6,669 nucleotides of DNA, taken from the IMG/VR virus record IMGVR_UViG_2711768007_000014, one strand, 5' to 3'. Made by a program: the position numbers and the translations under genes. Positions 1 through 5,803 of this stretch are shown one piece after another. The DNA comes from a virus (Duplodnaviria; Heunggongvirae; Uroviricota; Caudoviricetes). Position 1 is the stretch's first letter; each line of letters begins with the position of its first letter. The notes beneath the pieces are model-generated. The model did no database searches. It was not told the origin of the DNA and saw only the letters and a program-made list of their open reading frames with translations.

Positions 1-152
1 AATACGGGAATACATTGAGATTTTCTACAATCGTCAGCGTCGTCACTCTCGTCTGGGGAATATCTCCCCGGCAGCCTTCAGGGAAAAATATCATCAGATG
101 GCTGCTTAAAAAAAGAACAAATGGTAGTGTCCGCTATTGCCAGTACACCTCA
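1..152 (+). mobile_element. Right-end fragment of an IS3-family insertion sequence (3' end of transposase gene plus terminal sequence ending ...CA at 152); cut by the window edge
   Basis: Positions 1-152 are a perfect reverse complement of 6518-6669 (verified base by base; identity breaks at 153/6515). The region encodes a transposase C-terminus with the IS3-family signature. The element terminus reads ...CCTCA, i.e. the complementary end would begin TGAGG..., consistent with IS3-family TG...CA termini. Exact IS name not recognised. Confidence 0.75.
2..109 (+). CDS. IS3-family transposase (OrfB/integrase-core) C-terminal 35 codons, 5'-truncated by window edge
   Basis: Frame 2 translates to IREYIEIFYNRQRRHSRLGNISPAAFREKYHQMAA followed by TAA at 107-109. 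The FYNxxRxHSxLGxxSPxxF motif is the conserved C-terminal tail of IS3-family DDE transposases. Confidence 0.75.
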   Translation: MREYIEIFYNRQRRHSRLGNISPAAFREKYHQMAA

Positions 153-334
153 GGATAGCGGTCATGTGATGCCGGTTTCCCGGTAACTCAGCACCGGTAT
201 CTGAGTCAACGTTTTCTCTACTGGGTCATTTCCGATACGCCCTGCCTGCTGACAGGCTTTCATCACATCTGAAAATATAGCACCCTGACTGATACTGTAG
301 TACCTAAGGTTCCAGAAACTGTGATGTATCCGGC

Positions 335-360
335 ACAGAAAAGCCCCTCCGGAGAGGGCT
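335..360 (-). terminator. Weak terminator-like hairpin (imperfect palindrome AGCCCCTCCGGAGAGGGCT) followed on the minus strand by UUUUCU
   Basis: Imperfect inverted repeat at 342-360 with a short A-run at 339-342 on the plus strand (a U-run on the minus-strand transcript). Only a 5-bp clean stem and 4 U residues, so weak. Confidence 0.3.
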
Positions 361-556
361 GGAGAGTGGCGCTATGTGCCATTGCATGATGCCGGGTGCC
401 TCCCGGTGAATTCAGTACCAGCACCTGAATCCGCGATTATCCCATATACCTACTCGCTGATTGCCCCTCCGCACAGGGGGATTCACCATGCCAGTTTCTT
501 TTAACAAACTCCCCGCAAAACAGACAACTGTCAACCGTCTGAATTGTGAGACATTT

Positions 557-596: not shown

Positions 597-673
597 TGGC
601 GCGTTGTACTGGATTCGAACCAGTGACCGATTGCTTAGAAGGCAATTGCTCTGTCCGGCTGAGCTAACAACGC
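597..673 (-). tRNA. tRNA-Arg, anticodon UCU (reads AGA/AGG); argO-like phage tRNA
   Basis: Minus-strand sequence GCGTTGTTAGCTCAGCCGGACAGAGCAATTGCCTTCTAAGCAATCGGTCACTGGTTCGAATCCAGTACAACGCGCCA folds as a cloverleaf: 7-bp acceptor stem, GCTC/GAGC D-stem, anticodon stem ATTGC/GCAAT, loop CUUCUAA (anticodon UCU), T-arm ACTGG-TTCGAAT-CCAGT, encoded CCA. Confidence 0.85.
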
Positions 674-686
674 ATGATGCAGATAA

Positions 687-763
687 TGGACCGCCATCGG
701 GGACTTGAACCCCGCGCAGCCAGCTTCGAAGGCTGGCGCTCTTTCCTGATGAGCTAATGGCGG
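687..763 (-). tRNA. tRNA-Arg, anticodon read as UCG (reads CGA/CGG); argN-like phage tRNA
   Basis: Minus-strand sequence CCGCCATTAGCTCATCAGGAAAGAGCGCCAGCCTTCGAAGCTGGCTGCGCGGGGTTCAAGTCCCCGATGGCGGTCCA. Acceptor stem CCGCCAT/ATGGCGG, anticodon stem CCAGC/GCTGG, loop CUUCGAA (anticodon UCG), T-arm CGGGG-TTCAAGT-CCCCG, encoded CCA. D-loop is atypical (ATCAGGAAA). Confidence 0.75.
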
Positions 764-770
764 TATGTGA

Positions 771-846
771 TGGTGGCCCTTGCTGGATTTGAACCAGCGA
801 CCTGGCGATTATGAGTCGCTCGCTCTCACCACTGAGCTAAAGGGCC
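771..846 (-). tRNA. tRNA-Ile2 type (anticodon CAU, probably lysidine-modified to read AUA); ileZ/ileX-like
   Basis: Minus-strand sequence GGCCCTTTAGCTCAGTGGTGAGAGCGAGCGACTCATAATCGCCAGGTCGCTGGTTCAAATCCAGCAAGGGCCACCA. Near-identical in architecture to E. coli ileX as I recall it; anticodon loop CUCAUAA; encoded CCA. Could formally be an elongator tRNA-Met. Confidence 0.85.
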
Positions 847-2517: not shown

Positions 2518-3339
2518 TTACCTAGTTACCTTTTTTAACTGCCGCTCAGCCCATGCTTCTTCAATATCAAACCGGGTCACCAGCGCATCATAAAATTTCT
2601 TAACTGTTTTTTCCCATGACGCGCGTGTTATCTGGTTTGTCACCTCGCATATAGCATTAAATGCCTCCGTTGATGGTAGTCTTTCATAGCCACGACCACC
2701 ACAACGCTGGCAGTCTCTGATAACAGGCATACCACGTTTTACCGACTCTTCACGATGAATGGCGACACCACGCCCACGGCAATCCTTACAGGCGGTGGAA
2801 ACCTCACCCTTTCCGCCACACTCCGGACAGGCAACTTTTACCACCTCCCTGACTTTTTTCCATTCTTCCCAGTAAGACGGATACACACCTTTCGTACACT
2901 TTGCCCATACCGGCGGCTTACCATCCGGATACTGGATCTTGTTTGTAAAAACCTCGCTTTCAATAAATTTTTTTCCGTGACAGCAGGGGCACTGTTTTTT
3001 GCTCGCCGCGCTACGGGCATAATCTTCAAACGCATACGAAGCCATAATACGCATCACTGCCGGTTTTATTTCTGCCGGGAGTTTTCTTAACGCCGCCACG
3101 CGATCACACCGACTGAGTGCATATTCTGTCAGCAATTCTGTTGCCCGCTCTCTGTCATTCATACTAATGCCCATTTTCCCAAGGAACGCAGAAACCCCCA
3201 TCTCAGCCCGATTCTGTGTCATGCCCTGCGCGGCCATCACATCAGTGATACTCAGCGCATCTTTCGACGTTGAGGCCGATGCATCAGTCAGGCCGGGGGA
3301 TTTTGGGGAGTAGTATTTCGGTAAATCTTCCAGTTTCAT
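2518..3339 (-). CDS. Q-like late-gene antitermination protein with four CxxCxGxG zinc-finger repeats
   Basis: 273-aa ORF immediately downstream of rusA (ATGA overlap) and immediately upstream of the pR'/tR'-like signals. N-terminus MKLEDLPKYYSPKSP resembles the Qin-prophage Q homologue (QuuQ) as I recall it. Contains CPCCHGKK, CPECGGKG, CKDCRGRG and CQRCGGRG repeats. Confidence 0.7.
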   Translation of the reverse strand: MKLEDLPKYYSPKSPGLTDASASTSKDALSITDVMAAQGMTQNRAEMGVSAFLGKMGISMNDRERATELLTEYALSRCDRVAALRKLPAEIKPAVMRIMASYAFEDYARSAASKKQCPCCHGKKFIESEVFTNKIQYPDGKPPVWAKCTKGVYPSYWEEWKKVREVVKVACPECGGKGEVSTACKDCRGRGVAIHREESVKRGMPVIRDCQRCGGRGYERLPSTEAFNAICEVTNQITRASWEKTVKKFYDALVTRFDIEEAWAERQLKKVTR

Positions 3340-5132: not shown

Positions 5133-5214
5133 CAACAGAATCCTTCCAGATAAATAGCACTCCCCTGTTCGGGGTCCATCCCTCTTCTCCCTGCGCGCTA
5201 CTTAAGTATTTTTG

Positions 5215-5244
5215 ATTCTATTCCGGCACCATCTAAAACTTCAA
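5215..5244 (-). promoter_or_regulatory. Candidate sigma-70 promoter (-35 TTGAAG, 18-bp spacer, -10 TAGAAT) upstream of the frameshifted gene/DUF968/rusA/Q operon
   Basis: Consensus-like hexamers on the minus strand between the hok terminator and the next ribosome binding site. Sequence match only. Confidence 0.25.
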
Positions 5245-5249
5245 ACGCG

Positions 5250-5283
5250 TTGAAAATAAAAACAAAAACCCGCCGAAGCGGGT
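5250..5283 (-). terminator. Rho-independent terminator of the hok mRNA
   Basis: On the minus strand: stem ACCCGC/GCGGGU closed by a UUCG tetraloop, followed by UUUUGUUUUUAUUUU. Confidence 0.65.
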
Positions 5284-5352
5284 TAAGTGTGGGTGCATTG
5301 AGGATGCCTGCCCCATCAGAGGTGGCGAGGGATTTCTCCCCCGCCTGGTCTC

Positions 5353-5508
5353 TTACTCCTCAGGTTCGTAAGCTGTGAAGACAGCGACCTCCGTCTGGCC
5401 GGTTCGAATTCGTACCTCGCAGAGGTCTTTCCTCGTTACCAGTGCCGTCACTATGACGGTTAAACAGATGACGATCAGGGCGATTAACATCGCCTTTTGC
5501 TGCTTCAT
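5353..5508 (-). CDS. hokD: Hok-family type I toxin (51 aa), HokD/RelF-like
   Basis: Translation MKQQKAMLIALIVICLTVIVTALVTRKDLCEVRIRTGQTEVAVFTAYEPEE matches the Hok family (single transmembrane helix, conserved C...C and TAYE tail) and, from memory, HokD/RelF. An upstream ATG at 5565 with a GAGG ribosome binding site (mok-equivalent) is in frame with hok here, so the ORF track shows a 70-aa extended ORF 5353-5565. Confidence 0.9.
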   Translation of the reverse strand: MKQQKAMLIALIVICLTVIVTALVTRKDLCEVRIRTGQTEVAVFTAYEPEE

Positions 5509-5584
5509 AGCCTGCTTCTCCTTGCCTTTCGGCACGTAAGAGGCTAACCTAGATTTGCCGTTCATAGATTGAGCCTCAGATTAA

Positions 5585-5660
5585 TGTTAAGCGTCTTGCC
5601 GGACGCGTAATGTTAACTGGGGCTTTTCTCTATCTGCCTTTTGGTGTTCATGCCTGAGAC
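5585..5660 (+). ncRNA. Putative Sok-like antisense RNA complementary to the hok mRNA leader (boundaries approximate)
   Basis: Inferred from the hok/sok paradigm. The hok leader here (minus strand, ...GGGTGCTTGAGGCTATCTGTCTCAGGCATGAAC...) resembles the plasmid R1 hok 5' end. I could not confidently map the sok promoter or terminator; a possible promoter is TTGCCG-N19-ATTAAT near 5555-5585. Confidence 0.3.
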
Positions 5661-5683
5661 AGATAGCCTCAAGCACCCGCTGC

Positions 5684-5711
5684 AATTCTACTTAACTCTC
5701 CTTTTCCCGCA
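5684..5711 (-). promoter_or_regulatory. Candidate hok promoter (-35 TTGCGG, 16-bp spacer, -10 TAGAAT); predicted start near 5676
   Basis: Consensus-like hexamers placed so that the transcript would begin at GGGTGCTTGAGGC, which parallels the R1 hok mRNA 5' end (GGCGCUUGAGGC). Transcript to the terminator would be about 420 nt. Confidence 0.4.
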
Positions 5712-5719
5712 AACCGTTT

Positions 5720-5803
5720 TTATCCCCAGCGGCAAATCGAATACACCACCAGCGCCACCGCCATCGCAATTCCTACCGTTGTTAATGCTTCAGGCCAGGT
5801 CAT
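5720..5803 (-). CDS. 27-codon hydrophobic small ORF ([27 protein letters not shown]), start overlapping the stop of the upstream ORF (ATGA)
   Basis: ATG overlaps the TGA of the 114-aa ORF. Hydrophobic core [16 protein letters not shown] is compatible with a membrane-inserted peptide. Its 3' end overlaps the candidate hok promoter. Below the ORF-track size cutoff; could be fortuitous. Confidence 0.3.

Follow-up and report, generated by a model that had tools for sequence, protein, structure and literature searches.

A hok/sok locus in which the leader reading frame mok runs straight into the toxin gene hok raises the question of whether such a layout is a defect, a novelty or an ordinary state of the system, since in plasmid R1 mok overlaps hok in a different frame. 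The locus considered here lies in a 6,669-nt stretch of DNA from a virus of the class Caudoviricetes (IMG/VR record IMGVR_UViG_2711768007_000014), below called the window. An earlier note on this DNA suggested that the in-frame layout could be a lineage-specific arrangement, a 1-nt indel or a regulatory variant, or else the sign of a decayed pseudo-locus. We are highly confident that positions ~5712-5262 of the window hold an intact hok/mok/sok type I toxin–antitoxin module of the hokW/hokD type, situated in a lambdoid prophage, within its nin region. Its anatomy, its conservation and the census of mok frames come from the present analysis, and the statements about transcription, processing, coupling and function are taken from homologues and published papers.

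Anatomy and setting of the module

The toxin gene hok (5353..5508, minus strand, with the ATG at 5508-5506), present in the ORF list, encodes a 51-aa membrane toxin of the HokD/HokW type, MKQQKAMLIALIVICLTVIVTALVTRKDLCEVRIRTGQTEVAVFTAYEPEE. This protein is 100% identical to HokD of K-12 and matches the Pfam family Hok/gef (PF01848) with 81.6 bits (cut-off 22), and its gene maps on hokW of phage 933W. The same strand carries mok (5353..5565), a 70-codon leader ORF that contains hok in frame and lies base for base on the annotated mokW of 933W. The mok ATG (5565-5563) is separated from the hok ATG by 57 nt (19 codons), both ORFs end at the common stop 5355-5353, and the 70-aa product consists of MNGKSRLASYVPKGKEKQA followed by the Hok sequence MKQQKAML…EPEE; exactly this protein recurs, named as a Hok-family member, on at least 1000 public contigs. 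The Shine-Dalgarno (SD) sequence of mok, GAGG (5574..5577, minus strand), located 8 nt before its ATG, is invariant among 65 homologues, stands at −66 to −71 from the hok ATG in all surveyed loci, and is base-paired with AGCCUC (5545-5540) in the predicted folds. The SD of hok itself is GGAG (5521-5518, minus strand).

An observation of a different kind concerns the codon for Tyr47 of Hok (TAC GAA; window 5365-5370, minus strand), where GCUUACGAACC holds UACG, the motif at which TadA edits A to I. It does not vary among the homologues, and a recent preprint (10.1101/2025.08.07.668861) describes the hokC, hokD and hokE mRNAs as being edited at the C-terminal Tyr codon to Cys.

The leader matches the Rfam covariance model 'sok' (RF01794) with 112.4 bits (gathering score 59), the full model (1-157) being aligned to window 5678-5503. 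The model matches the hok-sense strand, Sok itself being the complement. The start of this model and a predicted terminator-like hairpin with a T-run (5284-5258, minus strand; hairpin 5284-5267) delimit a putative full-length hok mRNA of about 417 nt (5262..5678, minus strand), which would begin with GGGUGCUUGAGG…. The predicted fold of this RNA (5678-5262) has an MFE of −169 kcal/mol and z = −7.05 against shuffles. In the MFE fold, the element tac at the 5′ end (GGGUGCUUGAGG; 5667..5678, minus strand), which is invariant in homologues, pairs with its complement fbi at the 3′ end (CCUCAAUGCACCC; 5291..5303, minus strand), with 12/13 positions paired and one bulge. Moreover, tac and fbi vary together across the family, being GGCGCUUGAGAC/…CUCUCAAGCGCC in Photorhabdus, and a compensatory pair, GGUGCCUGAGAC/…UCUCAUGGCACC, is seen in hokB. 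When the 3′-shortened mRNA (5678-5312) was folded, its MFE structure lacked the open tac/ucb conformation known from publications; single MFE structures are inadequate for the dynamic hok RNA, and hence ucb was not assigned. The 3′ UTR of the hok mRNA, together with fbi and the terminator, also overlaps a sub-threshold Rfam match to isrK, an Hfq-binding RNA of the Gifsy-1 prophage (window 5263-5344, minus strand; 25.8 bits with a gathering score of 50, E = 0.018), which could be due to chance or to a distant relationship of 3′ UTR hairpins.

A strict σ70 consensus scan of 5200-5800 reported neither the hok nor the Sok promoter, and both were placed by homology and conservation instead. The putative hok promoter (5685..5712, minus strand) is composed of a −35-like TTGCGG (5712-5707), a 16-nt spacer and the −10 hexamer TAGAAT (5690-5685); its position relative to +1 was set by homology with the 5′ end of the R1 hok mRNA and by the start of the Rfam model. 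TAGAAT is invariant in the 65 unique homologues, and conservation falls off upstream of about 5715. The putative Sok promoter (5522..5550, plus strand) was read from the sequence as a −35 hexamer TTGCCT (5522-5527), a 17-nt spacer and a −10 hexamer TAACCT (5545-5550), the latter agreeing with the consensus at 3/6 positions only. It is identical to the corresponding 933W/Sp5 stretch and near-invariant in homologues, and in Sp5 mutation of the Sok −10 region (primers YO-421/422) abolished the antitoxin activity of sokW (PMC8621323). The predicted Sok antisense RNA itself is about 71 nt long (5557..5627, plus strand), its coordinates having been transferred from the annotated sokW of 933W. Its predicted fold has an unpaired 5′ leader of 8-11 nt, a long terminal hairpin and a U-rich tail (z = −4.9), and 60/71 nt are identical to SokW of 933W, the differences being confined to the first ~11 nt.

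The window thus has the toxin of the Hok/Gef family (characterized by about 50 aa, an N-terminal transmembrane helix and a conserved C-terminal part), the RF01794 leader, mok with its own SD and the tac/fbi pairing that characterize a hok/sok locus, and an antisense Sok with a promoter inside the leader is predicted from the sequence. The geometry of mok is the one of mokW in 933W and mokC in K-12 (57 nt, common stop), and not the one of R1, with its different frame and separate mok stop. Accordingly, the description of the locus in the earlier note as hok/sok with a HokD-type toxin, and of a mok-equivalent ATG lying in frame 19 codons upstream, with a GAGG SD and a 70-codon ORF, is confirmed by the Rfam and Pfam matches, by the identity to K-12 HokD and by the ORF list.

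Essentially invariant in the 65 homologues are the hok −10 hexamer, tac, both SDs, both ATGs, the Sok −35 and −10 hexamers, hok and fbi. This bears on the suspicion that the window holds a decayed or inactive pseudo-locus, whose in-frame ATG would be a by-product of an indel. K-12 offers precedents, as its hok loci are often inactivated (by IS150 in mokA, by IS186 beside hokC and hokE, and by relBE replacing the hokD leader), and chromosomal loci have been reported to lack post-segregational killing in work cited in the preprint mentioned above (10.1101/2025.08.07.668861). Still, decay is very improbable here: the window copy has all regulatory elements intact and matching those of the experimentally active Sp5/933W locus, it contains no IS element, frameshift or stop, its toxin is 100% conserved and its mok ATG invariant, while the truncated locus is K-12 hokD, the homology of which starts from window 5522 only.

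The gene context of this intact module is the nin/late-control region of a lambdoid prophage, comprising DUF968, RusA, antiterminator Q (2518-3339), a DNA methylase (887-1945), three tRNAs and Rem. The three tRNA genes (597-846, minus strand), located downstream of Q and the methylase, were called as CAT (Met), Arg-TCG and Arg-TCT. The CAT tRNA is probably of the ileZ type, and the trio appears to resemble the ileZ-argN-argO set upstream of stx in Stx phages. Directly downstream of the tRNA cluster there is a full-length Rfam match to the STnc100 sRNA (331-520, minus strand, 123.6 bits), adjoined by a second, degenerate copy (104-292, minus strand) with a sub-threshold score of 21.8 bits. Going down the window, the match to Stx2 phages ends at about position 463, and the prophage therefore diverges from Stx phages where stx would sit. 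At the other side of the module, a hydrophobic ORF of 27 codons (5720-5803, minus strand), whose start overlaps the stop of an upstream 114-aa ORF (ATGA), stops about 8 nt short of the hok −35 hexamer. In 933W the DNA of this ORF is conserved (aligned from 5760), but the stretch of 933W that was retrieved has no annotation of such a gene.

The reading frame of mok

An upstream ATG that is in frame and followed by 19 open codons is within chance expectation (1/3 for the frame, multiplied by about 0.4 for the absence of a stop). The in-frame mok start is taken as real because its ATG is conserved, and not because chance is excluded. In particular, the mok ATG (5565-5563) has zero entropy in the 65 unique homologous sequences, while the bases flanking it are the most variable of the transcript. 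Alternatively, the upstream ATG could be unused and Hok translated independently from its own start, given that GGAG is a good SD. We lend this hardly any credence, as both the mok ATG and the mok SD are invariant amid hypervariable neighbours and, moreover, Sok is complementary to the mok start and not to the hok start, so that antisense control without mok would lack a target.

The frame of the conserved mok start was surveyed in two sets of loci, in which the mok start codon occupies a homologous alignment column in all geometry types. The first set consists of 80 IMG/VR phage loci encoding a HokD identical to that of the window. The 57-nt spacing with a 70-codon in-frame mok is found in 66 of them (the allele of the window itself, ATGAACGGCAAATCT, accounting for 6 of these 66), whereas 11 have a 56-nt spacing and a 19-codon mok with a TGA overlapping the hok ATG, and 3, including the relBE-type junction of K-12, have no mok. 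The second, mixed sample comprises the window, K-12 loci, R100, F, one IncFII plasmid and one-genome-per-species matches, and covers the genera Escherichia, Shigella, Kluyvera, Citrobacter, Pseudocitrobacter, Photorhabdus, Pantoea and Erwinia. Among its 49 scorable loci, the spacing is 57 nt in 36, 58 nt in 8 and 56 nt in 5. The regex-based Hok finder missed K-12 hokB, which was read by hand, as well as the Kluyvera loci L033-L036 and truncated contigs, which are absent from the census; for K-12 hokE and the IS150-cut hokA no mok was assignable in it. A HokD identical to that of the window also occurs with the 58-nt spacing, namely in one locus (L010) and in phage Rac (annotated mok of 207 nt, offset 58). 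The in-frame layout is thus the majority state in both sets, and the idea of a special lineage-specific arrangement is not supported.

The searches also yielded near-identical hokD-type loci on very short contigs attributed to Acinetobacter idrijaensis (275 nt) and Xanthomonas pisi (431 nt) (L022, L027), and a hokD-type locus with 96% identity in the record of Actinobacillus phage vB_Apl-pPE4 (PP818812.1). All three probably represent enterobacterial contamination or misattribution, and not the real host range.

Different geometries are found with one and the same plasmid toxin. R100 (L061, NC_002134.1) has ATGTCTAGTCCACATCAGG, with the spacing of 58 nt and mok out of frame, and pMTY1886_IncFII (L007, NZ_CP128973.1) has ATGTCTGACAACATCAGG, with the spacing of 57 nt and mok in frame; in both of these IncFII-type plasmids Hok is identical to that of R1. 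Therefore, the frame flips within the R1 lineage, via an indel in the Sok-leader region. According to mutagenesis of R1, translation of mok is needed only up to the hok start, and the Mok product is dispensable (PMC9841398). The mok frame therefore appears free to drift, and beyond the hok start it should be neutral, since all three geometries bring ribosomes there; this is consistent with the census. That the variable block lacks in-frame stops would say nothing about frame selection, because stops before hok are disfavoured in every frame type.

On the other hand, the in-frame state might itself be selected, the 70-aa Mok–Hok fusion being a functional, possibly toxic or differently targeted isoform that arises in part through alternative initiation. 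Indeed, several lineages have the 57-nt spacing in most of their loci, the 70-aa form is already handled as a toxin of the Hok family in annotations and databases, and the 16 Photorhabdus copies keep a constant ATG-to-ATG distance of 57 nt, although the spacer between SD and ATG ranges from 11 to 14 nt among them. However, constraints of RNA structure explain a fixed length equally well, and the exchange of frames described above, both under the identical HokD (56 nt in 11/80 loci; 58 nt in L010 and phage Rac) and under the R1-identical Hok (58 nt in R100, 57 nt in pMTY1886), argues against selection for the fusion, as do the dispensability of the Mok product in R1 (PMC9841398) and the toxicity of the 51-aa ORF by itself (PMC8621323). 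We consider selection of the in-frame state unlikely.

In-frame mok is the most common of three interchangeable geometries (57, 56 or 58 nt), and it is neither a defect nor a novelty; since all three occur, the frame does not define the family. An explicit published statement on in-frame mok was not found beyond database annotations, the older hok/sok literature being incompletely covered, and a large Hok survey of 2026 says explicitly that Mok was not analyzed (10.1101/2025.08.07.668861).

The Sok leader and the proposed control of hok

The invariant mok ATG is surrounded by a hypervariable block (5551..5572, minus strand) that comprises the SD–ATG spacer and mok codons 2-5. The entropy here is 0.9-1.7 bits per column, and about 0 elsewhere in the transcript; among loci with a 100% identical HokD, the block has at least 15 alleles. 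It is the complement of the Sok 5′ end, and its target. These observations were made on the loci L064-L143, L009-L018 and L037-L054. In R1, the single-stranded leader of Sok makes the first contact with the target, according to the title of a paper by Thisted et al. (1994) to which PMC1635323 refers.

As many as 11 matching places were found per E. coli genome. The co-resident copies differ at the hypervariable block in 9 of the 10 multi-copy genomes, a small sample taken with no phylogenetic control.

We tentatively propose, with somewhat less than even confidence, that the Sok-leader block is under diversifying selection, that co-resident copies with identical toxins are controlled by non-cross-reacting Soks, and that indels in the leader explain the drift between the 56-, 57- and 58-nt geometries. 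A weaker reading is that in-frame loci may also make a functional 70-aa Mok–Hok isoform. The hypervariability of the Sok leader is a testable pattern, one that the large Hok survey explicitly leaves aside (10.1101/2025.08.07.668861).

As for the control of hok in the window, a scheme can be proposed that follows the general hok/sok mechanism (PMC4147584, PMC1635323). A weak promoter would give rise to a stable hok mRNA of ~417 nt, in which the pairing of 5′ tac with 3′ fbi would keep the mok ribosome-binding site closed. Slow trimming of the 3′ end would open the hok RNA, and synthesis of Hok would then require ribosomes starting at the mok ATG (5565) to read at least to the hok start (5508). 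The unstable 71-nt Sok (5557-5627, plus strand) would bind the mok initiation region through its 5′ leader, which would block mok and therefore hok, and would make the duplex a target of RNase III. Once Sok is no longer transcribed, e.g. upon prophage induction, Hok would be produced and would damage the inner membrane. Activation by 3′ processing, Sok-dependent decay by RNase III and killing on loss of Sok have been established for R1 (PMC9841398, PMC1635323), and the same scheme is partly known for hokW-sokW (PMC8621323).

Comparison with known hok/sok systems

The mokW/hokW/sokW locus of phage 933W and of Sakai Sp5 (AF125520.1; Takada et al. 2021, PMC8621323) has 92% nucleotide identity to the window over the module. 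In the 933W annotation, mokW (58460-58672, 213 nt) and hokW (58460-58615, 156 nt) have a common stop and are described as 'similar to Gef+leader protein', and sokW (58664-58734, 71 nt) overlaps the first 9 nt of mok. The three genes map without offset to window 5565-5353, 5508-5353 and 5557-5627, respectively. The promoter hexamers, tac, fbi and the terminator are identical in the two loci, and both of them reside in lambdoid prophages, although in different parts of the prophage. The differences are found in mok codons 2-5 (MNGKS in the window versus MLNTC in 933W), in the 5′ alleles of Sok (GCCGUUCAU… in the window versus GUUCAGCAU… in 933W) and in the C-terminal tail of Hok (FTAYEPEE in the window versus FVDYESEK in 933W).

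[quoted passage not shown] The sokW RNA is seen on northern blots and is gone after mitomycin C; HokW, made on induction, is then seen in the inner membrane, which depends on RecA, and phage release is halved without the hokW-sokW locus (PMC8621323). The mok region is treated in that study as the 5′-UTR (PMC8621323). Because this homologue works and the context of the window is likewise a lambdoid prophage, the most likely role of the module would be prophage-linked killing and assistance of lysis, as for the Sp5/933W locus.

Among the K-12 loci, hokD (relF) of the Qin prophage encodes the identical 51-aa toxin and has the 3′ UTR, fbi and terminator in common with the window, as well as rem as the downstream neighbour. 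The alignment with hokD and other hok loci that had been suggested as a check showed in-frame mok to be widespread, and the homology with K-12 hokD to begin only at 5522, just before the hok SD. In K-12 the mok start, Sok, tac and the hok promoter are replaced by relBE, and thus the locus is complete in the window, whereas K-12 retains no more of it than the truncated hokD. The chromosomal, non-prophage paralogue hokC (gef), adjoined by IS186, has the geometry of the window: in RefSeq, mokC (16751-16960) and hokC (16751-16903) have a common stop and starts separated by 57 nt (19 codons), in frame; MokC (UniProt MOKC_ECOLI) has 69 aa, sokC starts 8 nt inside mokC, and the positions of the SD and the ATG are as in the window. 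The 16-nt extra hairpin of the Sok region of the window is absent from the hokC locus. Of the remaining loci, the mokA pseudogene shares the stop of hokA, and mokB and hokB are offset by 58 nt. As mokW/hokW/sokW of 933W and mokC/hokC of K-12 share the geometry of the window, the idea of a fresh 1-nt indel or a regulatory variant is not supported. The in-frame arrangement is already known and widely annotated, and the window has an ordinary prophage copy; as a discovery it has little weight, for its annotation goes back to the 933W genome (mokW/hokW/sokW), and K-12 has it annotated too (mokC/hokC).

With regard to plasmids, the mok–hok junction of R1, used as a query, matched R100 (100% identity) and over 2,600 further plasmids, with identities of 99-100%. 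The parB locus of R1/R100 has the same elements in the same order as the window, including a mok of 70 codons with the SD at −69, and the layout of tac/fbi and of the Sok promoter matches as well. It differs in its setting, which is plasmid maintenance, and in Hok, which is about 44% identical (PMC8621323). The frame of R1 mok was given correctly in the earlier note: in R100, as in flm of F, 58 nt separate the two ATGs, and mok therefore reads the +1 frame, with its stop 4 nt before the hok stop. The window, by contrast, has 57 nt and a common stop. As the in-frame form prevails across the loci surveyed, the expectation derived from R1, with mok in another frame than hok, needs correcting.
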